Notes under the pieces: generated by a model | What the model saw: only the letters and a program-made list of their open reading frames with translations | Database searches by the model: none | Told to the model about the DNA's origin: nothing | Origin: an uncultured Bordetella sp. | GTDB lineage: Bacteria > Pseudomonadota > Alphaproteobacteria > Micropepsales > Micropepsaceae | Assembly (NCBI GenBank): GCA_964446945.1 | Contig: CAYUQO010000012.1 | Coordinates: 20,194-84,193, forward strand | Direction: 5' to 3' | Length of the DNA stretch: 64,000 bases | Program-made: the position numbers and the translations under genes | Shown: piece after piece, positions 39,670 to 54,261 of the stretch | How the letters are laid out: every line of letters starts with the position of its first letter | Numbering within the stretch: position 1 is the first letter of the stretch

Positions 39670-40491
39670 ATGAAGGATTACTCATCAATGCCGGCAGAAC
39701 AGGGCAGCTTCACGACTTCAGACGGATGCGAGATATCCTATACGCTGCATCGCCCGTCTGGCCCGGCTGCTCCAAGACTTGCGCTGATTCACTCCCTGGC
39801 GCTCGACCGCTCCATTTGGGACGGCGTTGTCGAACGGCTTCAGCCGCGGGCCGAAATCGTCACCTATGACTGCCGCGGGCATGGCCGGTCCGCACGGCCC
39901 CATATGGCCTACACCGCCGAACTTTTTGCCCGCGATCTGGCGCAGCTTTTCGTCCATTTGGACTGGCGCGACGCGACCGTCGCAGGCTGCTCCATGGGTG
40001 GCTGCGTTGCGCAGGCATTTGCCGGCTTGCATGGGTCCCGCGTGCGCGCCCTGACATTGATCGACACCACCGCGTGGTACGGACCAGAGGCGCCAAAACA
40101 GTTCCGGGAACGTGCAGCCGCGGCAAAAGCCAAGGGAATGCAGGGACTGATCGATTTTCAGATCACACGCTGGTTTTCGGAAAAATTCGTCACCGCCAAC
40201 CCGGAGTCCGTGCAGCGAGCTACCCGGGTGTTCCTCGCCAATGACTTCGATTGTTATGCGGCCAGTTGCGCGCTGTTGGGCGACGCCGATCTCCGGCATT
40301 ACCTGCCGTCGCTCCACATGCCGGTGGCGGTTGTTGTGGGTGAGGAGGATTACGCAACGCCAGTGGCGATGGCCAATGCGCTGCACGCTGCGATCCCGCA
40401 ATCGAGTCTGAAAGTCATCGCCGGCGGCCGCCATCTCACGCCCATTCAGTGTCCGGGCGAAATCGCCGAAACAATCGCCGGATTGCTGTAA
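39670..40491 (+). CDS. Alpha/beta-fold hydrolase (3-oxoadipate enol-lactonase-like)
   Basis: 273 aa with HSLALD, nucleophile elbow GCSMGG and a C-terminal His (GGRHL). Confidence 0.85.
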   Translation: MKDYSSMPAEQGSFTTSDGCEISYTLHRPSGPAAPRLALIHSLALDRSIWDGVVERLQPRAEIVTYDCRGHGRSARPHMAYTAELFARDLAQLFVHLDWRDATVAGCSMGGCVAQAFAGLHGSRVRALTLIDTTAWYGPEAPKQFRERAAAAKAKGMQGLIDFQITRWFSEKFVTANPESVQRATRVFLANDFDCYAASCALLGDADLRHYLPSLHMPVAVVVGEEDYATPVAMANALHAAIPQSSLKVIAGGRHLTPIQCPGEIAETIAGLL

Positions 40492-41885
40492 TGACAATAG
40501 AGGCCGCGGCCGGAACTGTTGCACTGCAGCCGGGGGCGCCGGCGGATTCCGCCAGAGCCGCTGAACTGATTGCGCGCATTGAATCGGTTCCGTTCTCGCG
40601 CTGGCATGTTCGTCCATATGTCATCATGGGCAGCGCGACCTTCTTCGACGCGTTCAGCGCGCTGGCACTCGCCTCCGCAACTCCGGTGCTGGTGCGGCTG
40701 TGGCATCTCACTCCGGCCGATGTCGGTTATCTGCTCGCGGCCAGCTATATCGGTCAGTTTGCCGGCGCGCTGATTTTCGGCTGGCTGGGTGAGAAGCTCG
40801 GCCGGGTGAAAAGCGCGACTTACGCGACATTGATCATGGCGGTGGTCAGTCTCGCCTGCGCGTTCACCGGTAATTTCACCCAGATGTTCGTGTGCCGTCT
40901 GGTGCAGGGAATTGGCGTCGGCGGCGAGATGCCGGTCGCCGCCACCTACATCAATGAGCTGTCGCGTGCGCGTGGCCGTGGCCGCTTTTTCATGATCTAT
41001 CAGCTGATCTTTCCGATCGGTTTTCTGGCCGCGGCAATTCTGGGCGCACAACTGGTGCCGCTTTACGGCTGGAATGTGCTGTTCATACTCGGCACGGTTC
41101 CAGGCATCATCATCACCTTTCTGGTGTCGCGTCTGCCGGAATCGCCACGCTGGCTGATCCGCCACGGACGGTTCGCCGAAGCGGAAGCGATCGTCGGCAG
41201 TCTGGAAAAAAGTACGCCTGAACGGAATCTCGTCGCCCCGCAGCCAGCCGGAATTTCCACTGCCGGCCGCGCCAGCCGCTGGAGCGAGTTGTTTTCGCCG
41301 GTCTATCGTGCGCGCACACTGATTGTCTGGGTGATCTGGGCGACGGCCTATGGCGTCACCAATGGCCTGAACAACTGGATGCCGACGCTCTACAACACGG
41401 TTTACCACCTGCCGCTGAAAACTTCGCTGAATGCAGCGCTGTTGACCAATGCCATGCAGGTGCTGGTTTTGCTGGTTTGCGTATTCGTCATCGACCGGGT
41501 CGGACGCAGGGCATGGATGACCGCCTGCTTTGTGCTGGGCGCCATTCCGCTGGCTGTGCTCGGATTGACCGGCACCGGTGAAGTGACGCGCGTCATTGCC
41601 GGAGTGACTCTCGGATACGGGGTTATGAGCACGATCAACACCGTACTCTATCTCTACACGCCGGAAATTTATCCGACCCGGATGCGCGCCATCGGAACGG
41701 CGGCAGCAACCAGCTGGCTGCGCGCGGCCTCGGCCGCGGGACCGGCTGTCGTTGGCGTGATGGTATTCACCCACGGCATAGGATCGGTGTTTGTGATGTT
41801 CGCGGCCATCGCGCTCATCGGCGCGTTGGCGGCTTCGCAGGCGATCGAAACCCGGAATCGCCGGCTCGAAGAAATCGCGCCTTAG
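40491..41885 (+). CDS. MFS transporter (aromatic acid/sugar-porter-like)
   Basis: ATG 40491 overlaps the hydrolase stop (TAATG). 12 TM helices and MFS motifs GWLGEKLGRV and PESPRWL. Confidence 0.85.
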   Translation: MTIEAAAGTVALQPGAPADSARAAELIARIESVPFSRWHVRPYVIMGSATFFDAFSALALASATPVLVRLWHLTPADVGYLLAASYIGQFAGALIFGWLGEKLGRVKSATYATLIMAVVSLACAFTGNFTQMFVCRLVQGIGVGGEMPVAATYINELSRARGRGRFFMIYQLIFPIGFLAAAILGAQLVPLYGWNVLFILGTVPGIIITFLVSRLPESPRWLIRHGRFAEAEAIVGSLEKSTPERNLVAPQPAGISTAGRASRWSELFSPVYRARTLIVWVIWATAYGVTNGLNNWMPTLYNTVYHLPLKTSLNAALLTNAMQVLVLLVCVFVIDRVGRRAWMTACFVLGAIPLAVLGLTGTGEVTRVIAGVTLGYGVMSTINTVLYLYTPEIYPTRMRAIGTAAATSWLRAASAAGPAVVGVMVFTHGIGSVFVMFAAIALIGALAASQAIETRNRRLEEIAP

Positions 41886-42712
41886 AAATCTGCCTGGTTC
41901 GCCTGCGGGACCTTGTTGTCGAACAAACCCGTGTCCCTGGTGTTCTCGGCACAAACCTGTTCGTCCATTGGCCCCTGCTGCACCTTGCGGTAGCGCTGGA
42001 TTGCCGACCACGGCTCATTGAATGTGTCAGGGTCCTCAACCCAAATCAGGTTTTCAAGCACCCGCCCATCATTGGTCAGCCGATAACGCTCCACGACATG
42101 CAGCTTCTCCGTGTGCGGCGTACGATAATTGTCCAGGAAGGTGCGGCTATTAAGGCCGATGGTATCGACCACCAATGTGTCGCCTTCATAATGCCCGACA
42201 GATTCACCGTACCAGGATGGCTTGGCATTGGTGCTATGCGGGACGTTCATCCACACCCGGCGCACCTGCTGGTCGCCGGAATAGATCATCAGGATCTCTT
42301 TGGCTGATTGCACGAAGTATACCGGCTCCACGACGAAAAGGGAGAAACCCGGTACGCCCGCGGGCATGCAGCTGGACCGCGCGGTAAAGGGAAACTTGCC
42401 CGCCAACGCTTCTTCGTTCGATTTTCTCATCGCATCGGCGGCCCAAGGTTTCAGATTTGGACTTGTCACGTCCGCAATCCTGAATGTCGCGTTGGGAATA
42501 TATGGATGGGCCGGATCCGCGCGCGTCGGGCCATAGCCGGATGGCGGCGCGGCCAATCCGTCCCGGTTCGCGACCACCCAGCCGGCATTTCCGGATTGGA
42601 AATCGGGAATAGAAGACGGGTTTTGCGCGACAACCGGCGCTGTATTCGCGATGCACAGCGCGACGGCACCCGGAATGATGTAGTGGCGGTGCGGAGCGAA
42701 GTACCTTGTCAC
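41882..42712 (-). CDS. Exported protein, tandem paralog family member P1
   Basis: GTG 42712 has AAAGG upstream. Family motifs SSIPDFQSGNAGW, PSGYGP, SCMPAGVPG, KPSWYGESVGHYEGDTLVVDTIGLN, DNYRTPHTEKLHVVERY, VCAEN; ends VPQANQADF. The 5' 82 codons of the track ORF were rejected. Confidence 0.8.
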   Translation of the reverse strand: MTRYFAPHRHYIIPGAVALCIANTAPVVAQNPSSIPDFQSGNAGWVVANRDGLAAPPSGYGPTRADPAHPYIPNATFRIADVTSPNLKPWAADAMRKSNEEALAGKFPFTARSSCMPAGVPGFSLFVVEPVYFVQSAKEILMIYSGDQQVRRVWMNVPHSTNAKPSWYGESVGHYEGDTLVVDTIGLNSRTFLDNYRTPHTEKLHVVERYRLTNDGRVLENLIWVEDPDTFNEPWSAIQRYRKVQQGPMDEQVCAENTRDTGLFDNKVPQANQADF

Positions 42713-42737
42713 GTGAATTGCCTTTCGCCGATGACGT

Positions 42738-43598
42738 TCAGAAATCCGCCCTGTCGGCTTGTGGGATCGGCTCCATATCATAATGCAGATAATTGACCGG
42801 CGCTTCGGCGCAGGACGATTCGCGGATCGGTCCCTGTTCCACCCGGCGATATTTCTGCACCGCATGCCAAGGCATGGTGAAGGCGCCCGGATCGTCCACT
42901 GCGACATCCACCGACAGCCCTTTGGCGCCGGGATCGATCCTGAACCGCTCAACGACATGCAGTTGCACCGTGTGTGGCGTACGAAAATTGTCGATGTAGG
43001 TTTTGTCGTTCAGGCCGATCGTATCGACCACAAGCGTGTCGCCATTCTCATAATGGCCGATGGATTCGCCAAACCATGACGGCTTGAGATTGGCCGAATG
43101 TTTATCGGTCAGCCAGACGTGGCGGAATTCCGCATTGGGCGGCCAGATCATCACCACCTCTTTCGGCGTCTGGACAAAATAGATCGGCTGGGCCGGATGC
43201 AGCAGGAACGCCGGAACGCCGACCAGCTTGCAACTCGCCTGCTCGGTAAAGCCGCCGCCACCCGCGGCGACATGGTCATTGACCTTCTTCAGGGCTTCGC
43301 GCGCCCAGGGCTGCAGGATCGGATTGCTGAGATCGGCCATCGCAAAGATCGGCTGGCCCAAAGCGAGATCGTTCGCGACGCGCTTCCGCCCGGGCATGTC
43401 CATCACCGGTCCCGGTCCGGACGGCGGGGGCAGCAACACCACGCCGGCCGCCTGCCAACCGCCATTCATAAACGCGAATGGCGGCACATCTTGTGATGAA
43501 TTAGCTGCGGCTGCTGCCGGCATGGCGGACAGCGATATCGCGGCAGCGGCCGTGCCGATCAGGATTTTCATGCGATGCGAAGCAAGGATACCGCTCAT
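42738..43598 (-). CDS. Exported protein, tandem paralog family member P2
   Basis: 286 aa with signal peptide. Motifs SCKLVGVPAF, KPSWFGESIGHYENGDTLVVDTIGLN, DNFRTPHTVQLHVVERF, SCAEA; ends PIPQADRADF. Confidence 0.85.
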   Translation of the reverse strand: MSGILASHRMKILIGTAAAAISLSAMPAAAAANSSQDVPPFAFMNGGWQAAGVVLLPPPSGPGPVMDMPGRKRVANDLALGQPIFAMADLSNPILQPWAREALKKVNDHVAAGGGGFTEQASCKLVGVPAFLLHPAQPIYFVQTPKEVVMIWPPNAEFRHVWLTDKHSANLKPSWFGESIGHYENGDTLVVDTIGLNDKTYIDNFRTPHTVQLHVVERFRIDPGAKGLSVDVAVDDPGAFTMPWHAVQKYRRVEQGPIRESSCAEAPVNYLHYDMEPIPQADRADF

Positions 43599-43623
43599 GT
43601 GAATCCCCTACGGCAGAAGCCAT

Positions 43624-44478
43624 TCAGAAATCCGGTTTGCTCGCGCTCGGCGCGCCCACCCAGCCAGGAAGATTGAAGGTGTTGTCGTTGTTTTCCGAAC
43701 AATTCTCTTCCAGCATCGGCCGGTTGCGCACCTTCGTGTAGTGCTGCATCGCCTGCCACGGCTGATAGAAGGTGCCAGGATCATCCACAAACAGATCGGT
43801 CTCGAGCTGCTTTCCTCCATCGATCATGTGATAGCGCTCGATGACATGGAGCTTGTCCGTATGCGGCGTGTGGTAATTGTCGATTACCGCCTTGGGCGAC
43901 AGTCCGATCGTATCCACGACCAGTGTGTCGCCTTCGTAGTGTCCGACCGATTCGCCGTACCATGATGGCTTCGGATTCTGGTTATGCGACACATTCAGAT
44001 AGACATGCCGGATCTCGCGATTGCCGGAATAGATCAGCAGCACCTCTTTGGGTGATTGCACGATATAGACCGGCTCGATTACGAACAGCGAAAACCCGGG
44101 TACGCCGCCCGGCAGGCAGCTCCAGCGCGGCGTGACGCCGAGCTGACCGGCAAAAACCAGGTCATTGTATTTTTTCAGTTCGGCTATGGCCCACGGCATC
44201 AGGTTCGGGTTGTTCAGGTCAGCCACGCGATAGGTCGCTGGCCCCGGTTCGTCGTTGCGCCGGAATGGATATTTCCGGTCGAAGGTGACCGGCTTCGGTC
44301 CGGGACCGGGCACCGGCGTGAAATCGGAGTTGATTGCGAGCCAGCCGTCCTGAAATGAGGAAAAATCCGGAATTTCGCTTGCTTCCGGCCTGTCAGCTGC
44401 TGCGGCGGCCGCGGCCATCGCCAGTACAGAACACGTCAATGCCATTCCGAAAAAATTACGCAAACGCATGCCGATCAT
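43624..44478 (-). CDS. Exported protein, tandem paralog family member P3
   Basis: 284 aa. Motifs SEIPDFSSFQDGW, PGPGPKP, SCLPGGVPG, KPSWYGESVGHYEGDTLVVDTIGLS, NCSEN; ends APSASKPDF. An alternative ATG lies at 44469. Confidence 0.85.
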   Translation of the reverse strand: MIGMRLRNFFGMALTCSVLAMAAAAAAADRPEASEIPDFSSFQDGWLAINSDFTPVPGPGPKPVTFDRKYPFRRNDEPGPATYRVADLNNPNLMPWAIAELKKYNDLVFAGQLGVTPRWSCLPGGVPGFSLFVIEPVYIVQSPKEVLLIYSGNREIRHVYLNVSHNQNPKPSWYGESVGHYEGDTLVVDTIGLSPKAVIDNYHTPHTDKLHVIERYHMIDGGKQLETDLFVDDPGTFYQPWQAMQHYTKVRNRPMLEENCSENNDNTFNLPGWVGAPSASKPDF

Positions 44479-44542
44479 TTCTCCAGTGATTGGGCGGGAC
44501 TGTAGCAGGTTTGATGTCGGTGAAACCGCGGGCGAGCGAGCC

Positions 44543-45382
44543 TCAGAAATCCGCTGTCATGGCGGTCGGCAGCGGATCGAGATCGAAATTGAAATAGTTG
44601 TAGTTGCCCTCGATGCAGGTCGATTCCTGCATTGGTCCAACTTCGATCCGCCGGTAAATCTGCTGTGCGCTCCAGGGCACGGTGAATGCGCCCGGATCCT
44701 CCACTGTCACCGTGACTTCGATTCGGGTGTCGACGTTGGTGAGTTTGAAACGTTCGACGACATGTAGTTTGTCGGTGTGTGGCGTTCGATAATTGTCGAC
44801 AAAAGTGCGCGTGTTCAGACCGATGGTATCCACCACCAGAGTGTCGCCATTTTCGTAATGGCCGATCGATTCGCCGAACCAGGACGGCTTCGGATTGGGC
44901 GAGTGTTTGTCGGCGAGGTAAATGTGCCGGACCATGTGGTCGGCCTGCCACGTCATCACCACTTCTTTCGGGGTCTGCACGATATAGACCGGTTGCGCCG
45001 GATAAAGCAGGAAACTAGGAACACCGAGCGGCCAGCAGCGCACCTGTGGCGGGAAATTGTCACCTTTGCCGGAGAGTGTGCGCTCATTGACTTTGCGCAG
45101 GGCTTCTTTCACCCACGGCTGCAGGATCGGGTTATTGATATCCGCAACCCGCAGCGTCGGCTGCCGCCCGCGGTTGTTGTTCAGCACATAAGGATGTGCC
45201 GGATCGGGCGTCACCGGATGCGGACCCGAAGGCATGGCGATGAATTCCGTCCCCCGGGCAATCCACCCCACAGTCGGATCGTCATCCGAAAAATCGGGAA
45301 TTTTCTGCTGAGCGGCCGCGCTGAGCAGTGGCGCTGCACACAATCCAAACACAAGACCTGCGCGCGCCGCTACCTTCAGCAT
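44543..45382 (-). CDS. Exported protein, tandem paralog family member P4
   Basis: ATG 45382 (MLKVAARAGLVFGLCAAPLLSAAA) lies 17 nt after the P5 stop, with GAGG upstream. Motifs KIPDFSDDDPTVGW, RCWPLGVPSF, KPSWFGESIGHYENGDTLVVDTIGLN, TCIEGN; ends PLPTAMTADF. Confidence 0.85.
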   Translation of the reverse strand: MLKVAARAGLVFGLCAAPLLSAAAQQKIPDFSDDDPTVGWIARGTEFIAMPSGPHPVTPDPAHPYVLNNNRGRQPTLRVADINNPILQPWVKEALRKVNERTLSGKGDNFPPQVRCWPLGVPSFLLYPAQPVYIVQTPKEVVMTWQADHMVRHIYLADKHSPNPKPSWFGESIGHYENGDTLVVDTIGLNTRTFVDNYRTPHTDKLHVVERFKLTNVDTRIEVTVTVEDPGAFTVPWSAQQIYRRIEVGPMQESTCIEGNYNYFNFDLDPLPTAMTADF

Positions 45383-45399
45383 TTCTCGTTCCTCGTGAT

Positions 45400-46236
45400 T
45401 CAAAAATCGGCTTTTGCCGCAACCGGAATCGGCTCCGCCTGCTGCGCAAAGGGATTGTTCATTTCCCCGTCCGCGCAGCGCGATTCCGTCATCGGCCCCT
45501 GCACCTTGCGCCATTGATGCACCACGTGAAGCGGCTGCTTCAGTGCACCGGGATCTTCAATCGTGATGTCGGCCTGCAGCTTCTCGCCGCCTTCGATCAG
45601 GTGAAATCGTTCCATCACATGCAATCTGTCACTGTGCGGCGTGCGATAATTGTCGATGAAGGTCTGCGTGTTCTGGCCGACGGTATCGACCACCAGCCCG
45701 TCGCCTTCGTAATGCCCCACGGATTCGCCGTACCAGGACGGCTTCGGCGCGCTCGAGTGCGGCACATCGAGATAGATGTGGCGGACCTGCTGATCCATTT
45801 GCCACATCATGGTGATCTTCTTCGGCTCCTGCAGGATGAAAGTCGGCTGCGCCGGATTGAGCAGATAGGTGGGAACGCCGGTCATCCAGCAGCGCGACTC
45901 GCGCGCATACATGGCAAATCCGGCCAGCACCATGTCGTTGGAGCGCTTCAGTCCCTCACGGGCAAATTCCGTGAGATTTGGATTGTTGGTGTCGGCCACC
46001 CGGAACGTCGGCTGCGTGCCCGAGCCGTTCGGAACATACCGGTGCGCCGGATCATAAGTGACCGGCTGCGGGCCGCCGGGCACCCCGACATAATCGGTGC
46101 CGATCGACACCCATCCGGCATTGCCGGCGGAAAAATCCGGATGGGCTGCATTTTGAGCATCCGCGCCCGCGGCCCAGGTCAGCGCCAGGGCCGCCGCAAC
46201 CGGCACTGCATGTCTCGCCTGCTCAATTAATGACAT
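45400..46236 (-). CDS. Exported protein, tandem paralog family member P5
   Basis: 278 aa with GGGGAGG Shine-Dalgarno. Motifs HPDFSAGNAGW, RCWMTGVPT, KPSWYGESVGHYEGDGLVVDTVGQN, RCADG; ends PIPVAAKADF. Confidence 0.85.
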   Translation of the reverse strand: MSLIEQARHAVPVAAALALTWAAGADAQNAAHPDFSAGNAGWVSIGTDYVGVPGGPQPVTYDPAHRYVPNGSGTQPTFRVADTNNPNLTEFAREGLKRSNDMVLAGFAMYARESRCWMTGVPTYLLNPAQPTFILQEPKKITMMWQMDQQVRHIYLDVPHSSAPKPSWYGESVGHYEGDGLVVDTVGQNTQTFIDNYRTPHSDRLHVMERFHLIEGGEKLQADITIEDPGALKQPLHVVHQWRKVQGPMTESRCADGEMNNPFAQQAEPIPVAAKADF

Positions 46237-46273
46237 TGGATTCCTCCCCGAATCACAATGCCGCAGCTCGTCC

Positions 46274-47230
46274 TCAGAAGTCTGGTCTATTCGCCTGCGG
46301 AATTGGAAACAGCTTTTGGTGAAAGAAGATCGCGTCGTTGTTGTTCTCGGAGCACACGGTCTCGATCAGCGGATTCCGCACCTTGTGCCAGGTCTGCATC
46401 ATGTGGATCGGCTCGTTGAACGTATCCGGGTCATCCACGCTCACCACGGCGCGTAGCGTTTTGCCGTCGGGTGAAATCGTGAACCGCTCGACGACATGTT
46501 CTTTCAGCGAATGCGGCGTGCGGAAATTGTCGATGTAATTGTTCTTGGTCACCATGCCGATGGTATCGACCACCAGCGTGTCGTTGCCTTCGTAATGGCC
46601 GATGGATTCGCCGAATGACTGCGGATTGAGATTGGGCGAGTGTTTATCGGTCAGATAGATGCGGCGAACCATATGGTCGCGCTGCCAGATCATCCACACT
46701 TCCCTGGGCGTCTGAATAAAGTAAGCGGGCTCGGCCGGATACAGATCCTGCCCCGGTACCCCTCCCGGCCAGCAGCGCGCCTGCGCCGCAAACGGCACGT
46801 CGAGTTTGCCGGACAGCGCCTCGTCATTGCTCGCTTTCATGAATTCCGCCGCCCAGGGCTTGAGCACCGGATCGCGATAATCGCCGATGCGCAATGTCGG
46901 TTGCTTTCCTTGCCGGATCGCATCGACATTGCCGAGGAACGGATGGTCGGGATCATTCTTGATCCGCCCGTGGCCCACTGTTCCCGCCGGAGGGTCCATC
47001 CAGTCGGCGCCATCGGACAGCCAGGCAAACTGGATTGAAGCCAGGTTGGGAATGCCGTTTTTCGTGACGGAATAGTCGAGATCGGCGGGTTGCGAGCGGT
47101 CGACCAGATCCGCCTCGCGTGGGCGCTGGTTTTGGGCCGACGATGCCGGCGACAAGGCCAGCACCGCGAAACTCGCACCAACAATCGCGCATTTGACGCA
47201 GGATGAAATCACATCATGGGAAGCCGGCAT
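46274..47230 (-). CDS. Exported protein, tandem paralog family member P6
   Basis: ATG 47230 is preceded by GGAG, 22 nt after the P7 stop. Longer N-terminal region. Motifs RCWPGGVPGQ, QSFGESIGHYEGNDTLVVDTIGM, DNFRTPHSLKEHVVERF, VCSEN; ends PIPQANRPDF. Confidence 0.85.
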   Translation of the reverse strand: MPASHDVISSCVKCAIVGASFAVLALSPASSAQNQRPREADLVDRSQPADLDYSVTKNGIPNLASIQFAWLSDGADWMDPPAGTVGHGRIKNDPDHPFLGNVDAIRQGKQPTLRIGDYRDPVLKPWAAEFMKASNDEALSGKLDVPFAAQARCWPGGVPGQDLYPAEPAYFIQTPREVWMIWQRDHMVRRIYLTDKHSPNLNPQSFGESIGHYEGNDTLVVDTIGMVTKNNYIDNFRTPHSLKEHVVERFTISPDGKTLRAVVSVDDPDTFNEPIHMMQTWHKVRNPLIETVCSENNNDAIFFHQKLFPIPQANRPDF

Positions 47231-47252
47231 TCGTTTCTCCAGGGGGCGTGGT

Positions 47253-48125
47253 TCAGAAGTCGGATGTTTTCGCTTCAGGCAGCGGAAACAGATTCTGGCG
47301 GAAAAAATCATCATTGTTTTCGGCGCACACCGTCTCCGCCATGGGCTCGTTCACCTTGAACCAGCGCTGCTGCATGGTCAGCGGCTCGTTGAACGTCCCG
47401 GGATCGTCCACCGTCGCAATGGCGGTCAAATTCTTGCCATCCGGACTGATCGTGAACCGCTCCACGACGTGGAGGTCTTCCGTGTGCGGCGTGCGGAAAT
47501 TATCGATATAGCTGTTCTTCGCCGAAAGCCCGATCGTATCGACAACAAGAGTATTGCCGTTTTCATAATGGCCGATGGATTCGCCGAACCATGACGGCTT
47601 CACGTTCGGCGAATGTATGCCGGTCAGGAATACGCGCCGCACCATGTGGTCGCGTTGCCAGATCATCCACACTTCCTTCGGCGTCTGGACGAAATAGAGA
47701 GGCTCGAACGGAAACAGCAGTTGCCCCGGAACTCCGCCCGGCCAGCAGCGCGCCTGCGCTGCAAACGGCACCTGCCGGATACCCTTCAGCGCTTCCTCGT
47801 TGGAATCGGCCATGACTTTCGCCGCCCACGGCTTGAGCACGGGATCCTTGCTGTTGCCGATGCGCAGCGTCGGTTGCGCGCCAGCCCTTCCGGCATCCGC
47901 ATTGCTCAGGAATGGATGCGCCGGATCGTCCGTGATCGGCCCGTGCCCATGCCCCGGGGGCGGCGCCTGCCAGTCCGCGACGTTGGTTTGCCAGCCAAAA
48001 TCGGGGGAAGCGAATTTGGGAATGGCTGTCGAATCGCCGGGTTCGCCGGATGCAATGCCGGCAGTCACCAGAACTCCGCCCAGGATAAGGATCGGCAGCA
48101 AAGACAATTTCGGCAGTGGTTTCAT
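47253..48125 (-). CDS. Exported protein, tandem paralog family member P7
   Basis: ATG 48125 gives MKPLPKLSLLPILILGGVLVTAGIASG. Motifs SPDFGW, RCWPGGVPGQ, KPSWFGESIGHYENGNTLVVDTIGLS, VCAEN; ends PLPEAKTSDF. Closest paralog is P6. Confidence 0.85.
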   Translation of the reverse strand: MKPLPKLSLLPILILGGVLVTAGIASGEPGDSTAIPKFASPDFGWQTNVADWQAPPPGHGHGPITDDPAHPFLSNADAGRAGAQPTLRIGNSKDPVLKPWAAKVMADSNEEALKGIRQVPFAAQARCWPGGVPGQLLFPFEPLYFVQTPKEVWMIWQRDHMVRRVFLTGIHSPNVKPSWFGESIGHYENGNTLVVDTIGLSAKNSYIDNFRTPHTEDLHVVERFTISPDGKNLTAIATVDDPGTFNEPLTMQQRWFKVNEPMAETVCAENNDDFFRQNLFPLPEAKTSDF

Positions 48126-48331
48126 GCGACGGCGCCTCGCGATTGGTGCTATCCGCAACCTGATGGTAAGTAAATTTTAAGGTGAATGGGAGCGCGCGGC
48201 AATCACCTAAGCACCGGTCATCCACGGGGTTGCGCCGTTCCCCGGCAAAAAATACTATTTGAGTTCAGAGCTGTAACCCGCCGGCTGCGACTTTGCCGTG
48301 GCCGGAGATTTTGTTTGCGAGGCCGGAAGCG

Positions 48332-48535
48332 ATGGAATGGAACGCCAAACTTGATTGGGCGGAAGAAGTTTACACGCTGCTGGTCGTCCTGCCGGTGCCG
48401 ATCGTTGCGGTTGCCATTCTATGGTCCATCGCGCCCTGGCTCCATCGGCGCAGCTTCTTGCGCAAGCAATCGGAGCAGGCGGTCCCCGCAGTGGAGATCG
48501 AAGTCAGTGGAACACCGGCGGCCGAAAGAACGTAA
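48332..48535 (+). CDS. Hypothetical 67-aa single-TM protein on the opposite strand, inside the array gap
   Basis: MEWNAKLDWAEEVYTLLVVLPVPIVAVAILWSIAPWLHRRSFLRKQ... One TM helix followed by a basic stretch. Its 3' end overlaps the convergent membrane-protein gene by 32 nt. Weak Shine-Dalgarno. Confidence 0.3.
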   Translation: MEWNAKLDWAEEVYTLLVVLPVPIVAVAILWSIAPWLHRRSFLRKQSEQAVPAVEIEVSGTPAAERT

Positions 48536-49025
48536 TCAGCCGCCCGCATATCAATACCGCAATCCAGCACGACAGTGACGTTCCGGCGATGATTTTGGCG
48601 CGCAATGGCGCGTCATCTCCGGGTTCGAGCCGCTGCACCGCGGCATAGGCCGGTGTGGCATAGAACAGCGCCGCATTGACGCCCGCGATCATCACGAATG
48701 TCACCAGAAGCTGGAACGACGGATTGTAGAAATACTGTTCGGGAAAACCGAAAAAGAACACCACACCCGTTGTCAGATTGACCAGAAAGCCGGCGATGCC
48801 GAACGGGATCAGGCGATGCAGCTTGGCCGGTGCGATCTGCCGGCCCATGCCGAGCACGCGCAAGTCGAACAATCCGACCGTACCGAGCAACAGTGAAAAG
48901 CCGAGATAATGAATCGACTGAAGCGCCGGCCACAGCCACTGACCGTGCGCAGAAATGAAATGGTGCAACCCGCTGGCGCGTATCCACTGCTCCCACGGCT
49001 CCGGATTTAGTGGTTCGGTGAACAT
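48504..49025 (-). CDS. Polytopic membrane protein M1 (173 aa), embedded in the paralog array
   Basis: Four or five hydrophobic helices and a C-terminal CWIAVLICGRLITFF motif shared with the neighbouring M2. No family recognised by eye. Confidence 0.75.
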   Translation of the reverse strand: MFTEPLNPEPWEQWIRASGLHHFISAHGQWLWPALQSIHYLGFSLLLGTVGLFDLRVLGMGRQIAPAKLHRLIPFGIAGFLVNLTTGVVFFFGFPEQYFYNPSFQLLVTFVMIAGVNAALFYATPAYAAVQRLEPGDDAPLRAKIIAGTSLSCWIAVLICGRLITFFRPPVFH

Positions 49026-49028
49026 CGC

Positions 49029-49544
49029 CTAAAAACCACCCGGGACGCCGACCAGCAGCCATTTATAGGTGTAGGCGAGCAGCCGTCCGGCGATCAGCAC
49101 TCCCGCCCAGCAGGCGAGCGACAGAATTGCAAGAATTTGGGAATTCGCCACGATCGCGTGTCGCGCGGGAATCTGCCAGGGCGGCGCCCGCAAGACGCCG
49201 TCCCTGATCCGGACTGCGAGATAGACCCCGCACGCCACCAGCGACAGCTTCACGTAGAACAGGGGATTGGTGAACGCCTTGTAGGGATAGGCGTCGAGCA
49301 GCAACAATCCCGATGCGATATTCAGCGCCAGCGCCGCCCACAGCACCGGATAGAAGCGCTCGAACAGCGCCGCCGGAACGCCGCGCGCGACGCCCAGCAG
49401 CCGGAATGCCACCGCGGCGCCGGTGCCGGCGATAAAACCGGCGCCGAGAACATGTGCGGTCAGAATCAACGGGAAAGCGAATGAGCCGCCGCGAATGAAC
49501 TGACTCAGATCGGTATGCTCAAGCCAGCCGAAAAACCCCTCCAC
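49029..49544 (-). CDS. Polytopic membrane protein M2 (171 aa), distant paralog of M1
   Basis: GTG start with strong AAGGAGG 10 nt upstream. Motifs NPLFYVKL and CWAGVLIAGRLLAYT parallel M1 (NPSFQLLV / CWIAVLICGRLITFF). The stop is 3 nt before the M1 ATG. Confidence 0.75.
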   Translation of the reverse strand: MEGFFGWLEHTDLSQFIRGGSFAFPLILTAHVLGAGFIAGTGAAVAFRLLGVARGVPAALFERFYPVLWAALALNIASGLLLLDAYPYKAFTNPLFYVKLSLVACGVYLAVRIRDGVLRAPPWQIPARHAIVANSQILAILSLACWAGVLIAGRLLAYTYKWLLVGVPGGF

Positions 49545-49562
49545 GGCGCGGTGTCCTCCTTA

Positions 49563-49662
49563 AGCGCAATCCGCCGAAGTGTGAGCGGTTCAGCGGCCAT
49601 TTGCGCGACAATTAAAGAATCTAGAGCGTGATCCGATTCGATTTAATCGGATCATGCTCTAG
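49563..49662. repeat. ~100-bp intergenic repeat, copy A (conserved 5' block plus 18-bp-stem hairpin at 49621-49662)
   Basis: AGCGCAATCCGCCGAAGTGTGAGCGGTTC...TTGCGCGACAAT...CTAGAGCGTGATCCGATT-CGATTT-AATCGGATCATGCTCTAG. Second copy at 53175..53275. The hairpin contains the TAG stop of P8. Confidence 0.85.
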
Positions 49663-50492
49663 AAATCCCGTTTCTTCGCTTCAGGAATTGGCAAAAAGCC
49701 CTGGCCGAAGAAATCCGTGTTGTTTTCGGCGCAAACCGCTTCCTCCATGGTGTCGTGCGGCGCGCGCCGGAAAATCTGGCGCGCCGTCCATGGCATCTTG
49801 AATGCGCCGGGGTCGTCCACCGTGACCGTCAACTCCAGACGCTTGCCGGATGAGTCGGGATGAAATCGCTCGACCACATGCAGCGATTTCGTGTGCGGGG
49901 TCAGGTAATTGTCGACGTAGGTCTTGTCGTTCAAGCCGATAGTGTCGATGACGAGATCGCCATTCTCATAATGGCCGACCGATTCTCCGTACCATGAAGG
50001 TTTCGGATTCCGCGAATGCGGCACATTCATGAACACGTGGCGATACTGCGCATCACCTTCGTTCATGATCACGACTTCATTCGGCCGCTGCAGGAAATAA
50101 ACCGGGCGCAATCGCGAGAATACGTCATAACCGGGCACGCCCGCCGGCCAGCAAGTCTCGCGCGGAGAAAACGGCACATGGCCGGAAAGCGAATTGGCAT
50201 TCGCCTTTTGCAGGCGGTCTCGAACCCAGGGCTGGAGAATCGGATTGTTCAGATTGGCCACCCGCCAGGTCGCCTGTTTGCCGCTCTGGTTGCTGTAATA
50301 GGGATGGGCCGGATCCGAAACCACGGGACCCGGACCCGAAGTGGGCGGCTGGAAGTCGTCGCTCACCGGAAACCAGCCGGTATCGGCGTGGGACAGATCC
50401 GGGATTTTTGACGCTGAATCCGCATTCGCGCTCGGGCTGACGCAGGCGCATGACGCCGCGACGAAAAAAAATCCATACACTGACAATCGCAT
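49659..50492 (-). CDS. Exported protein, tandem paralog family member P8
   Basis: ATG 50492 overlaps the P9 stop (TAATG). MRLSVYGFFFVAASCACVSPSANA. Motifs KIPDLSHADTGW, TSGPGPV, TCWPAGVPG, KPSWYGESVGHYENGDLVIDTIGLN, VCAEN; ends PIPEAKKRDF. The upstream 193 codons of the 470-aa track ORF were rejected. Confidence 0.85.
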   Translation of the reverse strand: MRLSVYGFFFVAASCACVSPSANADSASKIPDLSHADTGWFPVSDDFQPPTSGPGPVVSDPAHPYYSNQSGKQATWRVANLNNPILQPWVRDRLQKANANSLSGHVPFSPRETCWPAGVPGYDVFSRLRPVYFLQRPNEVVIMNEGDAQYRHVFMNVPHSRNPKPSWYGESVGHYENGDLVIDTIGLNDKTYVDNYLTPHTKSLHVVERFHPDSSGKRLELTVTVDDPGAFKMPWTARQIFRRAPHDTMEEAVCAENNTDFFGQGFLPIPEAKKRDF

Positions 50493-51367
50493 TAAAAATC
50501 GGGCCTTTCTGCAATAGGTACCGTGGCTGTCGCGCCGGCGTAATAATCGGCGGTATTTTCGGGGCAGGCAATCTCTCCCCACTCCATAACTGACGACCGC
50601 CGGTACGCGACGGCGCTGCTCCAGCTGCGGGTGAAGGCTCCGGCATCGTCGACCGTGAACTCCACTTGCAGGCCCTTTCCACGGTAGTCGAAGTCGACAT
50701 AAACCGGTTCGGTCGTCGGCCGGCCATATTCGTGCTCGCTTCGCTCCTGCTCCTGCTTCGCCGCCTCGCCATCGATCAGCCGGTAGCGTTCGACCACGTG
50801 CAGCGCGGGCGTGTGCGGTGTCCCATACATGTCGATCAGCGAACCGGGCCGGGTCTTGATCCCGACCGTGTCGATGACCAGCGTGTCCCCTTCGTAATGG
50901 CCGACGGAGTCGCCATTCCATGACGGCACCACGTTTGCCGGATGGCTCGCATTCAACCGCACCTGCCGGAACTGGTGATCCTGAATATAAAGGATGGTGA
51001 TGCGATCCTTCTCCTGCAGCATCTGCATCTGCGCGATCCGCAAGACATAGGGCGGCGGCAGCGGCCGGCACTCATTCGAAAGATCGGGATAGGATTTGCC
51101 CGCGAGCGAAATCGCGCCGTGCTGTTTGACAATGTTCGCGGCCCAGGGTTGCAGAATGGGATTGTTGTAGTCGCCCACCAGCTTGAATGCGTCGCTGGTG
51201 CCGTTGGGCCGGCGTGCAAGATTCTTGAGCGGCCCTGGTCCGCTCCCGCCGAGATCATAGCCAAAGGTCGTCCGCGCCCAGATTCCGGAAAAATCCGGAG
51301 CAGCATCGGCTCCGGAGGGTGCAGCCAGGCACAGCGCCAATAATGAGACTGCCGCGCCTGCGCGCAT
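50492..51367 (-). CDS. Exported protein, tandem paralog family member P9 (PDFSG-W subfamily)
   Basis: 291 aa. Signal peptide then APDFSGIWARTTFGY, GSGPGPL, ECRPLPPPY, VPSWNGDSVGHYEGDTLVIDTVGI, TPHTPALHVVERY, ACPEN; ends VPIAERPDF. Confidence 0.85.
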   Translation of the reverse strand: MRAGAAVSLLALCLAAPSGADAAPDFSGIWARTTFGYDLGGSGPGPLKNLARRPNGTSDAFKLVGDYNNPILQPWAANIVKQHGAISLAGKSYPDLSNECRPLPPPYVLRIAQMQMLQEKDRITILYIQDHQFRQVRLNASHPANVVPSWNGDSVGHYEGDTLVIDTVGIKTRPGSLIDMYGTPHTPALHVVERYRLIDGEAAKQEQERSEHEYGRPTTEPVYVDFDYRGKGLQVEFTVDDAGAFTRSWSSAVAYRRSSVMEWGEIACPENTADYYAGATATVPIAERPDF

Positions 51368-51368
51368 G

Positions 51369-52232
51369 TCAGAATTCCGGCCGGTCGGCGCGGGGAATAT
51401 CGGTCAACCCGCCGCTGTAATATTCATAGGCGTTTTCGGCGCAGACATTTTCCACCCAGCCGCCGGCACGCCGCCAGGTGACGACCGCCGACCAGGGCTT
51501 TTTGAACACGTTCTTGTCTTCGACCGTGAACTCGATCTGGAGCCCCTTGCCTTTATACCCTTCATCGACCTCGGCAGCCTGTTCGGTCGCGACCGGCCCC
51601 GCTTCGCGGATATTTTTGTCCTGCGCCGCTTTTGCCACGGCGTAATCGACCGACCGGTAACGCTCGACGACGTGCAATGCGTCGGTGTAGGGCGAGCCAT
51701 ACATATCGAGCACGGGTTCGCGCGCAACTCTCGCGCCAATCGTGTCGACGACCAGCGTGTCACCTTCGTAATGCCCAACCGAATCTCCATACCACGAGGG
51801 TGTGACCTTCGCCGGATGCGTGGAATTCAGCCTGACGCGGCGGACCTGATGATCCTGCATGAAGACGAAAACGATTTCGTCCTTCTTCTGCAGCATCTGC
51901 ATCTCCTGGACGCGGAAGATGTAGGGGGAGACCATCGGCCAGCAATTCAGCGACGGGTTCGGATAGTCTCGGCCGCTGCGCAAAATTTCGCTGCGCTGCT
52001 TCACGATTGCCGCAGCCGACGGTGTCAGGTTCGGGCTTTCGAAATTGCCGCCGACATTCGATTGATTGTGATACCGGCCGATCGGTCCCTGGCCGCTTGC
52101 AGGCCGCTCATATCCGAAAGTCAGGCGCGCCCAGGCGCCGGAAAAGTCCGGCGCAGATGCCGGTTGCGCGGCCTCCGAAGGCAGTGCGGACACCGCCAGA
52201 GTGAGGCCGATGATCGTGCTTGCTACCCTCAT
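51369..52232 (-). CDS. Exported protein, tandem paralog family member P10 (PDFSG-W subfamily)
   Basis: ATG 52232 is preceded by GGGAGG. Motifs MRVASTIIGLTLAVSALPSEA, APDFSGAWARLTFGY, NCWPMVSPY, TPSWYGDSVGHYEGDTLVVDTIGA, VCAEN; ends IPRADRPEF. The stop is 1 nt before the P9 ATG. Confidence 0.85.
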   Translation of the reverse strand: MRVASTIIGLTLAVSALPSEAAQPASAPDFSGAWARLTFGYERPASGQGPIGRYHNQSNVGGNFESPNLTPSAAAIVKQRSEILRSGRDYPNPSLNCWPMVSPYIFRVQEMQMLQKKDEIVFVFMQDHQVRRVRLNSTHPAKVTPSWYGDSVGHYEGDTLVVDTIGARVAREPVLDMYGSPYTDALHVVERYRSVDYAVAKAAQDKNIREAGPVATEQAAEVDEGYKGKGLQIEFTVEDKNVFKKPWSAVVTWRRAGGWVENVCAENAYEYYSGGLTDIPRADRPEF

Positions 52233-52266
52233 CACAACGCCTCCCTGAAGGAATTGCGAAACCGTT

Positions 52267-53115
52267 TTAGAAGTCGGGTTTTCCCGCTGTGGGCATGGGA
52301 CGCACTTTATAATTGAACAGATTTTCGTTGTTCTCGGCGCACGGGGTTTCTTCGATCGGTCCGCGCGCAGTCCTTTTCCAGCGCTGCAAAGCGGTCCACG
52401 GCATGTTGAACGCGCCCGGATCTTCCACCCGTATGTTGTCAATCAGCGTCTTTCCCCCATCGGTCAGCCGATACCGCTCGATGACATGCATTTGGTCGGT
52501 ATGCGGGGTCCGGTAATTGTCGACAAAGGTGAGGTTGTTCAGGCCGATGGTGTCGACGACCAGGTCATCGCCCTCGTAGTGACCGACCGATTCCCCGGTC
52601 CATGATGGTTTCGGATGGGCGCTGTGCGGCACGTTCATATAGATGTGCCGTACCTGGAAATCGTTCTGATGGATCATCAGGATTTCCTTCGGCGTCTCGA
52701 TGAAGACCGTGATGTTGAATGGTGGTTCGAGCACATAGGCGGGCACGCCGGCGGGCCAGCAGCGTTCGCGCGGCACATAGGGAATCCCGCCGTTCAGCAC
52801 GTCCTGATTGGCCTTGCGCATCTGTTCTGCCGCCCACGGCTTCAAGATGGGGTTCGTCACGTCGGCAATGCGATAAGTCGGCTGATTGGGGCCGCCGGGA
52901 ACCGTCGGCACGAAGGGATGTGCCGGATCGTAAACGACCGGCCCCGGCCCGGTTTGCGGTGAAATGAAATCGTCCCCGTCGGCGTGATCGACCTGCCAGG
53001 CAGTGGCGACATCGGGAGCAAAGCGGAGCTGCTGTGGTGCCGCGCTGTCCGCAGCAGTAACGGCTGCTGCCGTGGCGCATCCGGCGATGGTGAAAACACT
53101 CACAATGCGGAGCAT
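52267..53115 (-). CDS. Exported protein (possible lipoprotein), tandem paralog family member P11
   Basis: ATG 53115 is preceded by GGAG. MLRIVSVFTIAGCATAAAV has a lipobox-like IAGC. Motifs TGPGPVV, RCWPAGVPA, KPSWTGESVGHYEGDDLVVDTIGLN, PCAEN; ends PMPTAGKPDF. Confidence 0.85.
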   Translation of the reverse strand: MLRIVSVFTIAGCATAAAVTAADSAAPQQLRFAPDVATAWQVDHADGDDFISPQTGPGPVVYDPAHPFVPTVPGGPNQPTYRIADVTNPILKPWAAEQMRKANQDVLNGGIPYVPRERCWPAGVPAYVLEPPFNITVFIETPKEILMIHQNDFQVRHIYMNVPHSAHPKPSWTGESVGHYEGDDLVVDTIGLNNLTFVDNYRTPHTDQMHVIERYRLTDGGKTLIDNIRVEDPGAFNMPWTALQRWKRTARGPIEETPCAENNENLFNYKVRPMPTAGKPDF

Positions 53116-53174
53116 TCCGTCACTCCATATCGCAGGCCGGCGGAACTTCCACGAATGTCGCGCCGCGCTGCCAG

Positions 53175-53275
53175 AGCGCAATCCGGCGAAGTGTGAGCGG
53201 TTCGCCGTTAGATTGCGCGACAATCAAAGGAAGCCAGCGCATGATCCGATTCCATTTAATCGGATCATGCGCTGG
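53175..53275. repeat. ~100-bp intergenic repeat, copy B (hairpin 53234-53275)
   Basis: AGCGCAATCCGGCGAAGTGTGAGCGGTTC...TTGCGCGACAAT...CCAGCGCATGATCCGATT-CCATTT-AATCGGATCATGCGCTGG. Same orientation as copy A. Lies between P12 and P11. Confidence 0.85.
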
Positions 53276-53346
53276 CGCTTCAAGCAAAAAAATCGGCCGC
53301 AGAACCGTGTGGTTCTGCAGCCGACCGGTAAGCGTTCTCCGGACTA

Positions 53347-54120
53347 TCAGAGGCCGGGAATGCGGCCCGCCGCGATTGCCGCGCGCGCCTGCGTAATGCC
53401 GTTGACTTTGGAAATGTCGCGGTGCTGTTCGCCGCAGACATAGTCTTCGAGACGGACATCGTTGCGCAGCGTGTAGACAAAACGCGTGCCGAAGTCGCGG
53501 GTGTAATAGGTCGGATCGTGGATCGTCACCACGTCCTCGAGCTGGGTCGGGCTGATTTTGCGGAACCGCTCGGTCGTGACCAGCATGTCGTCGTGCGGCA
53601 GGCCGGTTGCGTCGAGGAAGGTTTTCTCATTGAAGCCGGCGGTCTGCACGACCAGCGTGTCGCCTTCCCAATGGCCGACCGAATGGCCGTTGTAGAACGG
53701 ATACGGCACCAGCTCGTCATAGCTCGGCAGCGGCTTGTCCATCGCCACGACGCGGATCTGATGGTTCAGCTCGTGCACAATGGTGACCTGTCCGGGCGGA
53801 GCCTGGATGATTTCGAACGGATAGGGGGATGCCATGGTGCGCGGAATACCGTCGGGAACGCAGAATTTGCGCGCCGCATCCGTGATCGAGCCATCCTTCA
53901 GGCCAGCCTGATTCATCGCATAGGCCTTCTGGCCTTCCGCATTCAGCGGCGGCGCGCCACCGCCCTGCAGAACCAGTTTCGGATGATATTCCGTGGCCCA
54001 GTAAGTTCCGGAAATGTCGGGCGTCGCGCCGGCGCCCAACGCCGACCCGGCCATCATCGACAAGGCCAGAACTGCTCCCAGAGCCGTACCGCCGCGCGCA
54101 ACAACCCGAATATCGATCAT
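53347..54120 (-). CDS. Exported protein, divergent tandem paralog family member P12
   Basis: ATG 54120 is preceded by GGGAGG. Motifs TPDISGTYW, FCVPDGIPR, FYNGHSVGHWEGDTLVVQTAGFN, LPHDDMLVTTERF, VCGEQ. Lacks the ...DF tail (ends GRIPGL). Confidence 0.8.
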   Translation of the reverse strand: MIDIRVVARGGTALGAVLALSMMAGSALGAGATPDISGTYWATEYHPKLVLQGGGAPPLNAEGQKAYAMNQAGLKDGSITDAARKFCVPDGIPRTMASPYPFEIIQAPPGQVTIVHELNHQIRVVAMDKPLPSYDELVPYPFYNGHSVGHWEGDTLVVQTAGFNEKTFLDATGLPHDDMLVTTERFRKISPTQLEDVVTIHDPTYYTRDFGTRFVYTLRNDVRLEDYVCGEQHRDISKVNGITQARAAIAAGRIPGL

Positions 54121-54261
54121 GCAACCCTCCCAGAGTTTCATTGGCCCACCCGGCGAAACCCGCTCATCGGTTGCTTCGCCCGCATGGAGACATTTCTAAC
54201 GTTTAACATTGTACCGATTGAAAAAAAAGGCGGCAGGTTCCCGCTTTTCTTCTTTCGCGGG

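Follow-up and report, generated by a model that had tools for sequence, protein, structure and literature searches.

A tandem array of twelve exported proteins with a predicted calycin-type barrel in an uncultured Micropepsaceae bacterium

Introduction

Calycins, which include the fatty acid-binding proteins (FABP), the cellular retinoic acid-binding proteins (CRABP), myelin P2 and the lipocalins, siderocalin among them, have a closed antiparallel up-and-down β-barrel of 8-10 strands, preceded by a G-x-W strand and helices. FABP and CRABP use an Arg/Tyr carboxylate clamp, and siderocalin has a cationic calyx. Here we describe an array of twelve genes (P1 to P12) in a stretch of 64,000 nucleotides from an uncultured Bordetella sp., placed by GTDB in the Micropepsaceae (assembly GCA_964446945.1, contig CAYUQO010000012.1, positions 20,194 to 84,193). 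This whole stretch is called the window below, and all positions refer to it. The genes encode a family of exported proteins, here the P family, which are predicted to have a similar barrel, with a first strand and helices in front of it. Two genes for related membrane proteins, M1 and M2, lie inside the array.

Apart from siderophores, haem and B12, little is known of how substrates imported by TonB-dependent receptors traverse the periplasm in soil and marine Alphaproteobacteria. The P family offers a concrete candidate for this unexplained step, because its genes are repeatedly placed between receptor genes and those of inner-membrane transporters. Our tentative reading is that the P proteins are periplasmic ligand handlers of calycin type that act after outer-membrane import; we find this attractive, and would not yet call it probable.

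Results

The twelve proteins and their family

The minus strand between 41882 and 54141 contains twelve open reading frames, all of which score highly as coding in a codon-usage model. The proteins can be aligned over their full length (alignment A1), with pairwise identities of 27-66% and a worst pairwise BLASTP E-value of 9.6e-12, and 12/12 match the family hidden Markov model (HMM). The N-terminal segment of each, read by eye, is basic and hydrophobic and leads into an AxA-type site. An earlier reading of the DNA from its letters alone (the sequence-only reading) had described twelve homologous genes on this strand, with export signals, shared motifs and two conserved Cys residues, and all of this is borne out; the motifs are relaxed in P9, P10 and P12, as in CRPLPPP and GHSVGHWE.

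Superfamily-wide, the invariant residues comprise the PDxSG-W strand, Cys121, Cys260, R157, S/T177-x-G179, an aromatic residue at 181, E214-R215, W241 and E257. The subfamily found in the window has H180, E182, D200, H206 and D233 invariant as well, together with the sequence G-E-S-[VI]-G-H, which is formally GxSxG followed by His. In distant members H180 is replaced by Arg or Lys, and H206 and H211 are unconserved. One distant clade with Arg or Lys at His180 (L088 15573-16520, L104 1047-1928 and L163 9065-10276; L numbers denote loci) has an inserted D-x-(D/N)-x-D-G loop, which is calcium-loop-like, in the hairpin between strands 4 and 5. Nearly all proteins of the window subfamily (P1-P11; alignment A2) have a C-terminal (P/A)-D-F-COOH, reached through about 25 residues of low-confidence tail; this ending is missing from the Sphingomonad subfamily.

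Head-to-tail fusions of two family domains, about 500 residues long, are common (P0001-P0005, P0121 and others; L174 9001-10527), and P genes often occur in adjacent pairs. This hints that the functional unit may be a dimer.

The family has at least 8,000 matches at 90% clustering, every one labelled "hypothetical". At 50% identity there are 15,479 clusters (E ≤ 1e-3), and 8,775 of them pass E ≤ 1e-10. Species-representative genomes contain at least 567 loci. The 80 best of these all lie in metagenome-assembled genomes (MAGs), which belong to Micropepsaceae, Xanthobacteraceae and unclassified soil Alphaproteobacteria, and a single genome often has many loci. Cultured Erythrobacteraceae and Sphingomonadaceae encode a second, distant subfamily, which exceeds 5,400 proteins and is wholly unannotated.

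A scan of ten of the twelve copies with the Pfam and NCBIfam models (E ≤ 1) gave no match, and no Pfam family recurred among 90 family members (E ≤ 5); this includes all the calycin family models. A search of PDB sequences with the family profile returned just a spurious match to a maltose-binding protein (MBP) fusion, with E 1.7, and PADLOC gave no match for P3, P9, P12, M1, M2 or DUF6152. No relevant literature was found on uncharacterized lipocalin-like, TonB-dependent periplasmic proteins. The sequence-only reading could not match the family to anything characterized, and that still holds after HMM, structure and literature searches, with the weak FABP and CRABP matches described next as the sole result.

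Predicted structure

AlphaFold2 was used to predict the structure of P3, with an alignment of 90 sequences. The model has a predicted local distance difference test score (pLDDT) of 87.4 and a predicted template modelling (TM) score (pTM) of 0.83. It consists of eight consecutive strands (residues 137-250) and a short N-terminal strand (45-48) at the conserved "G-W", with a long loop, a helix (95-109) and a short helix lying between this strand and the barrel. A candidate counterpart of the calycin G-x-W motif is PD(F/L/W)SG-W, in which Trp46 is invariant; R157 and R215, also invariant, are candidates for the conserved basic residue that packs on the Trp in calycins. In a Foldseek comparison with the PDB, all 50 matches listed are FABP, CRABP or myelin P2, with a probability of 0.97-1.0. 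On the basis of the model, the P family is provisionally placed in the calycin fold, as a new branch that is much enlarged and lies outside every described calycin family.

Two other assignments were considered and rejected. P is not a periplasmic solute-binding protein of the ATP-binding cassette (ABC), tripartite ATP-independent periplasmic (TRAP) or tripartite tricarboxylate transporter (TTT) type: no HMM for such proteins matched, and the fold is predicted to be an all-β barrel and not a two-lobed α/β structure. Nor is it a serine esterase of the α/β-hydrolase type, given that G-E-S-V-G lies in a barrel β-strand in the model and that no Abhydrolase HMM matched.

Age and divergence of the copies

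P1-P10 have one-to-one, collinear orthologs in the closest relative, a Micropepsaceae MAG (L009), with 80-93% identity, and P1-P7 have orthologs in L005, L006 and L010 with 59-80% identity. The paralogs within the window are just 27-66% identical, which indicates that the duplications are older than the split of these lineages, and that every copy has been retained. The twelve copies are thus old, individually conserved specialists and not a recent amplification.

Positions that are fixed within an ortholog group yet differ between groups cluster at residues 109-135, 147-152, 197 and 203. In the model these fall in the helix, loops and turns beside the barrel strands, and the strands themselves are invariant. 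This pattern fits a shared chemistry or anchor group combined with copy-specific specificity.

Arrays in the Micropepsaceae have 9-12 copies, and all retain a pair of genes for a major facilitator superfamily (MFS) transporter and a hydrolase at the end. In the arrays of 11-12 copies in L006 (6165-8003) and L010 (8125-9783), a tannase/feruloyl-esterase gene (PF07519, E ~1e-118) stands in the place of M1/M2.

The membrane protein pair

The paralogous membrane proteins that had been noted in the middle of the array are indeed related (29% identity, E 2e-17). M1 matches PF20349 (DUF6644) with E 4e-5 and 24.1 bits and M2 with 16.8 bits, against a gathering threshold of 27 bits. M1 has 811 homologs, many of them already annotated as PF20349, and those that are 60-86% identical to M1 carry this domain; the homologs in Novosphingobium humi are named 'DUF6644 family protein' in RefSeq. 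The 90% cluster of M1 contains a Micropepsaceae protein; with the high identity to L009, this makes a Micropepsaceae genome the most likely source of the window.

M1 is highly conserved, and AlphaFold2 predicts four long helices (pLDDT 92). With Foldseek, the model has no PDB fold match below E = 1, known haem and copper membrane proteins included, and neither M1 nor M2 matches CopC (PF04234) or CopD (PF05425) at E ≤ 1. The topology was read by eye using the positive-inside rule, from which the conserved segments of M1, namely the N-terminal PWE-W-R-LH, His39, the FPEQYFYNP loop and the C-terminal RPP-FH, are likely to be periplasmic.

In 80 metagenome loci centred on M genes, the DUF6644 genes are paired wherever the contig reaches far enough, with the M2 type directly upstream of the M1 type. 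A P gene adjoins the pair in 17/80 of these loci (9/32 of those of at least 3.5 kb), and DUF6152 adjoins it in 5. Pairs beside P genes are found in L009, L086/L087, L089, L090 and L093. Because DUF6644 pairs repeatedly adjoin P genes in other loci, the position of M1/M2 in the array is not accidental: the pair is a recurrent, non-obligatory partner of P.

DUF6644 pairs that have no P neighbour are often preceded by a small DUF1761 membrane gene on the same strand (14 metagenome loci, such as L134 218-634, L149, L154 and L110). DUF1761 and the DUF6644 pair make up another recurrent membrane module, of three genes, which is uncharacterized. In Xanthobacteraceae (L084/L085 6287-10491, also L157 and L158), the pair is flanked by genes for a 360-residue β-propeller and a 463-residue protein with an N-terminal CxxCH, and the latter is followed by a cupredoxin (PF00127). 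A full-text search found no literature that mentions DUF6644 or DUF6152.

Gene neighbourhoods of the family

No single neighbour is obligatory, as no gene from outside the family occurs in more than 14/84 loci. The 150 genes that directly adjoin P in 80 P-centred loci were classified with Pfam, and the most frequent families among them are metallo-β-lactamase (8), MFS (7), DUF6152 (7), pyrroloquinoline quinone (PQQ) dehydrogenase (5), glyoxalase (5), α/β hydrolase (4), TctC (3), cytochrome c (3), NHL (3) and tannase (2). Many of the neighbours carry signal peptides of their own. The P loci are scattered, with many per genome, and lie beside exported metallo-β-lactamase-fold proteins, NHL propellers, PQQ dehydrogenases, tannase, amidohydrolase_2 and UbiD.

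Cultured Sphingomonadales, which have the distant subfamily, contain conserved operons in which P is joined to TonB-dependent receptors (TBDR), DUF6152 and DUF6644 pairs. In Alteraurantiacibacter aquimixticola (L176) the order is TBDR - P' - DUF6152 - DUF6152 - P - MFS - MarR, in Aurantiacibacter P' - DUF6152 - DUF6152 - P, and in Croceibacterium atlanticum DUF6152 - DUF6152 - P - TBDR - MarR. The products of the Croceibacterium operon include WP_053833712.1 (P) and WP_046903031.1 (DUF6152). Sphingobium TomTYG65 has P - DUF6152 - P - DUF6152 facing DUF6644 - DUF6644 - TBDR, and Novosphingobium PP1Y has permease - P - TBDR. An overlap of 4 nt joins a receptor gene to a P gene in Novosphingobium KACC 22771. 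DUF6644 pairs adjoin P and DUF6152 in Novosphingobium PP1Y and N. humi, and a metagenomic P-P fusion gene adjoins DUF6152. A survey of neighbourhoods was proposed in the sequence-only reading, and the co-occurrence it looked for is found, both with TonB-dependent receptors (in the Sphingomonadales) and with pairs of the M1/M2 type. The receptor of the Erythrobacteraceae operon has its closest counterpart in FyuA (E 1e-26), which is a metallophore receptor. Directly after the A. aquimixticola operon (L176 9000-10307) there is a gene for a fusion of cytochrome b561 (Ni_hydr_CYTB) with YceI.

DUF6152 is a small exported protein. Both the A-H-H-S at its signal cleavage site and an N-P-H sequence are invariant, and the mature protein begins with His-His; the N-terminal His may by analogy resemble N-terminal-histidine metal sites. 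A profile search found no homolog in the PDB, and the one DUF6152 protein with a full match list matches DUF6152 only (E ≤ 1e-5). A Micropepsaceae operon in two loci (L037 5387-10887 and L060 316-5897) has the order DUF6152 - multihaem cytochrome c - cytochrome c - P - P - exported metallo-β-lactamase-fold protein, and is the most clearly redox-flavoured context of the family. Proteins of about 430-450 residues beside the module in L093 and L085 were considered as a shared fourth component and rejected, since they are mutually unrelated, the one in L093 being GH39-like.

Taken as a whole, the results describe a new family, provisionally placed on a known fold, and a new conserved gene module of three uncharacterized families.

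Organization of the locus

The window has a G+C content of about 60%, and its features around the array are listed in Table 1. From P1 to P7 the intergenic gaps are 25, 25, 64, 17, 37 and 22 nt; P7 and P8 are separated by 378 nt, M1, 3 nt, M2 and 114 nt; and from P8 to P12 the gaps are -1, 1, 34 and 231 nt. The gaps reported earlier are therefore reproduced, including the one-base overlap of P9 and P8, but the operon-like spacing does not amount to a single operon. Two strong terminator hairpins in the interval between P12 and P11 part these genes, and the 378-nt gap between M1 and P7, which holds a promoter-like site, parts those two. The array thus has at least three transcription units, P12 being separate.

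Table 1. Positions in the window of the array and its flanking features. Coordinates of P genes include the stop codon.
Feature	Position	Strand	Evidence
α/β hydrolase	39670-40491	+	Pfam
MFS/Sugar_tr transporter, convergent with P1	40449-41885	+	Pfam
P1, family member, 276 aa, GTG start, identical to P0045	41882-42712	-	L009 ortholog, 83% identity
P2, family member, 286 aa	42738-43598	-	Alignment A1, family HMM
P3, family member, 284 aa, modelled copy	43624-44478	-	Alignment A1, AlphaFold2 model
P4, family member, 279 aa	44543-45382	-	Alignment A1, family HMM
P5, family member, 278 aa	45400-46236	-	Alignment A1, family HMM
P6, family member, 318 aa, longer N-terminal linker	46274-47230	-	66% identity to P7
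P7, family member, 290 aa	47253-48125	-	Alignment A1, family HMM
M1, DUF6644-like inner-membrane protein, 173 aa, 4 long helices	48504-49025	-	PF20349 sub-threshold match
M2, M1 paralog, 171 aa	49029-49544	-	29% identity to M1
P8, family member, 277 aa, start overlaps P9 stop by 1 nt	49659-50492	-	Alignment A1
P9, divergent member, ~28-aa insert after strand 6	50492-51367	-	Alignment A1
P10, divergent member, sister of P9 (48% identity)	51369-52232	-	Alignment A1
P11, family member, 282 aa, possible lipobox IAG|C	52267-53115	-	Alignment A1
Terminator-like hairpins after P12	53172-53326	-	Folding
P12, most divergent member, 257 aa, ~30% identity to others	53347-54120 (or 54141)	-	Alignment A1
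143-aa open reading frame, outer-membrane efflux remnant	54262-54693	-	PF02321, C-terminal half-repeat only
OmpR-type response regulator, divergent from array	54789-55463	+	Pfam Response_reg + Trans_reg_C
Sensor histidine kinase, divergent from array	55460-56839	+	Pfam 2CSK_N + HAMP + HisKA + HATPase_c
TonB-dependent receptor, 1114 aa	57082-60426	+	Plug domain, E 1.7e-12

An intergenic repeat of about 105 nt has two copies inside the array, at 53172-53278 (-) and 49563-49663 (-). Its two hairpins are a perfect one of 19 bp and then a bipartite one (minimum free energy -60.3 kcal/mol, z = -9.6), and the outer 8 bp of the first hairpin differ between the copies yet remain complementary. The second terminator-like hairpin downstream of P12 is part of this repeat. 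In L009 the gap orthologous to that between P8 and M2 is just 16 nt, and the element therefore looks like an insertion of the repetitive extragenic palindrome (REP) or miniature inverted-repeat transposable element (MITE) type, or else a lineage-specific terminator or regulatory hairpin. It has no Rfam match, and an Rfam scan of 41500-57200 found no riboswitch or leader (E ≤ 1).

The hydrolase and MFS genes are syntenic with the array in five further loci (L005, L006, L009, L010 and L053). At the other end, the short efflux reading frame is probably a truncated remnant where the block of two-component and receptor genes meets the array; a related array (L086) has a full-length efflux gene of 494 residues at a similar position. 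The two-component system that had been reported as adjacent is confirmed by its Pfam domains, and the large TonB-dependent receptor is supported by its Plug domain; a second receptor of the same type begins at the end of the window. For the complete receptor, PF00593 is unreported at E ≤ 1e-3 and the PDB sequence matches are weak (Cir and PirA, over the plug), while its length and a 60%-identical homolog in L065 fit its identity as a receptor. Homologs of it lie near family genes in L004, L033, L064 and L065.

The flank also contains two methyltransferases, the first with tetratricopeptide (TPR) repeats. Farther upstream in the window there are PQQ-dependent and molybdenum-dependent dehydrogenases and aromatic ring-cleavage genes. 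The window also has a DegP-like Trypsin_2+PDZ protease gene (11122-12312) and a DUF1194 (von Willebrand A-like) gene (28692-29558, minus strand), the latter recurring near P genes in L027, L032 and L056. A DUF6152 gene is absent from the window.

Discussion

A tentative role in ligand handling

We suggest that P1-P12 would be Sec-exported proteins of about 27 kDa, each consisting of an FABP-like up-and-down barrel wrapped by its N-terminal extension, with the conserved Cys pair probably locking this structure as a disulfide. In the periplasm, a small molecule arriving through the outer membrane, often by way of a TonB-dependent receptor, would be captured by one of these proteins and held in the barrel or at its mouth. 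The invariant Arg/Ser/His/Glu core would grip a common group, probably anionic or phenolic, and the paralog-specific residues around the mouth would set the specificity. The ligand may then be handed to periplasmic enzymes or to inner-membrane proteins, either the DUF6644 heterodimer M1/M2 or MFS transporters, and this hand-off may involve contacts with DUF6152, DUF6644 or the receptors.

The proposal is supported by the signal peptides and the superfamily-invariant Cys pair, by the calycin likeness seen with AlphaFold2 and Foldseek, and by the linkage to receptors. The recurrence of the DUF6644 pair, the scattered, orphan-like loci and the conservation of the copies as specialists support it further. 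From the tannase, LigAB-like dioxygenase, MFS transporter with a strong Sugar_tr (PF00083) match, MarR/TetR regulators, PQQ dehydrogenases and FyuA-like receptors in the gene context, we infer that the ligands may be plant-derived aromatic or phenolic compounds, probably anionic.

Several observations weigh against ligand handling. The Foldseek matches of P3 are weak, with E-values of 1e-3 to 2e-2, target-normalized TM scores of 0.42-0.53 and a root-mean-square deviation of 4-5 Å. So large an invariant polar set (R157, S177, H180, E182, D200, H206, E214, R215 and D233) would be expected in an enzyme or cofactor site sooner than in a diversifying binding pocket. To our knowledge, MFS transporters do not normally use binding proteins, and about 70% of the DUF6644 pairs stand apart from any P gene. 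Finally, the sequence-only reading had proposed a binding or processing component for substrates imported by the neighbouring receptors. The Sphingomonadales operons, with receptor and P genes that overlap in one case, and the recurrent membrane pair lend this real, if indirect, support, but in the window subfamily a TonB-dependent receptor lies within 10 kb in just 5/80 loci, and sequence and model do not distinguish binding from catalysis.

A wider proposal, which we regard as doubtful, is that P, DUF6152 and the DUF6644 heterodimer form an undescribed system that is coupled to TonB receptors and spans the periplasm and inner membrane. Such a system may be a small binding-protein-dependent permease (2 x 4 helices), or a quinol- or metal-linked module that releases or transforms aromatic or metal-chelate cargo. 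Its soluble component may have expanded in the Micropepsaceae into the conserved arrays of 9-12 genes.

Alternative functions

The P proteins could instead be periplasmic enzymes, using the barrel as a catalytic scaffold (hydrolase, lyase or isomerase) on plant phenolic esters, lactones or oligomers, which we consider somewhat unlikely. The polar invariants would then form an active site and the variable mouth would determine substrate specificity, with the products entering by MFS transporters; a breakdown step between receptor and MFS importer is a logical position for an enzyme. The polar motif is strongly invariant, including G-E-S-[VI]-G-H, R157, E214-R215, D200 and D233. However, S177 and H180 are three residues apart on one strand and should face opposite sides, and distant members carry Arg or Lys at H180 and do not conserve H206 or H211. 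The neighbours are mostly exported hydrolytic or oxidative proteins, such as metallo-β-lactamase-fold proteins with signal peptides directly downstream and NHL propellers; there is a tannase inside the L006 and L010 arrays, and the α/β hydrolase and MFS genes are syntenic with all the Micropepsaceae arrays. Against this, the predicted fold of P itself is not that of an α/β hydrolase, and no similarity to known enzyme families was found with Pfam, NCBIfam, PDB sequences or Foldseek.

It is unlikely that P belongs to a periplasmic redox or metal module, with DUF6152 (His-His, histidine-brace-like) and the DUF6644 pair binding metal or haem. Such a module would reduce, oxidize or de-metallate complexes imported by the receptors, or would service periplasmic dehydrogenases. 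P genes occur with cytochromes c in the L037 and L060 operon and have PQQ dehydrogenases and cytochromes c as direct neighbours in L015, L035, L038, L042, L055, L066 and L074, but P comes in dozens of copies in some genomes, which is not usual among metal chaperones. P has just one His that approaches superfamily-wide conservation, and that one varies; the signals of P are of Sec and not Tat type, and P has no CxxCH and no similarity to CopC, CopD, cytochrome b561 or YceI. The invariant A-H-H-S and N-P-H of DUF6152 would suit the module, yet the window has no such gene. DUF6644 has an invariant His in its first membrane helix and a conserved periplasmic face, and in L084 and L085 a cupredoxin and a CxxCH protein are encoded next to the pair, although the M1 model matches no known haem or copper membrane protein in fold. 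The FyuA-like receptor of the Erythrobacteraceae operon and the cytochrome b561-YceI fusion beside the same module also point in this direction.

That the array consists of periplasmic inhibitor or immunity barrels (MliC/PliC or Inh type), or is a neutral or selfish amplification, is very improbable: tandem small exported barrels are typical of such islands and a mobile-looking hairpin element of about 105 nt has inserted twice, but the highly diverged paralogs have one-to-one orthologs in kept order across several genomes, family members share operons with receptors, transporters and catabolic enzymes, and there are no toxin, type VI secretion system (T6SS) or defence neighbours and no PADLOC matches.

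Receptor-associated periplasmic families that are uncharacterized are not in themselves surprising; what is notable here is how large the family is, together with the conserved array and the linkage to receptors. Even if the function of P turns out to be mundane, a new family has been defined, and DUF6152 and DUF6644 gain their first conserved genomic partners. Homologs of P in cultured Croceibacterium atlanticum, Alteraurantiacibacter aquimixticola, Novosphingobium sp. PP1Y, N. humi and Sphingobium sp. TomTYG65 make it experimentally tractable.

Comparison with known systems

The YceI/cytochrome b561 (YceJ) system resembles this one in that a periplasmic lipocalin-like barrel is encoded with a four-helix membrane protein of about 175 residues that has a conserved His. 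However, the probability in hhalign is below 1% both for P with YceI and for M with cytochrome b561. In CopC/CopD copper import, a small periplasmic protein that starts with His works with an eight-helix membrane unit, which recalls DUF6152 and the 2 x 4 helices found here; the difference is that DUF6152 is absent from this locus, and that the copper genes nearby are limited to the cupredoxin in L084 and L085.

The Bug/TctC periplasmic binding proteins of the TTT systems, whose TctC genes are frequent neighbours of P, differ from it in having a Venus-flytrap fold and not a barrel, and TctA/TctB as membrane partners in place of two four-helix proteins. The analogy is therefore one of genome organization only: like them, P is massively expanded, exported and orphan-like beside catabolic genes, with far fewer candidate membrane partners.

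For the calycins the likeness is in the predicted fold. P is about twice the size, with an N-terminal wrap of about 100 residues; it is exported, and has a conserved Cys pair. It also has far more invariant polar residues, and no sequence similarity to the Pfam calycins. Among those polar residues, the invariant Arg residues recall, in general terms, the clamp of FABP and CRABP and the calyx of siderocalin.

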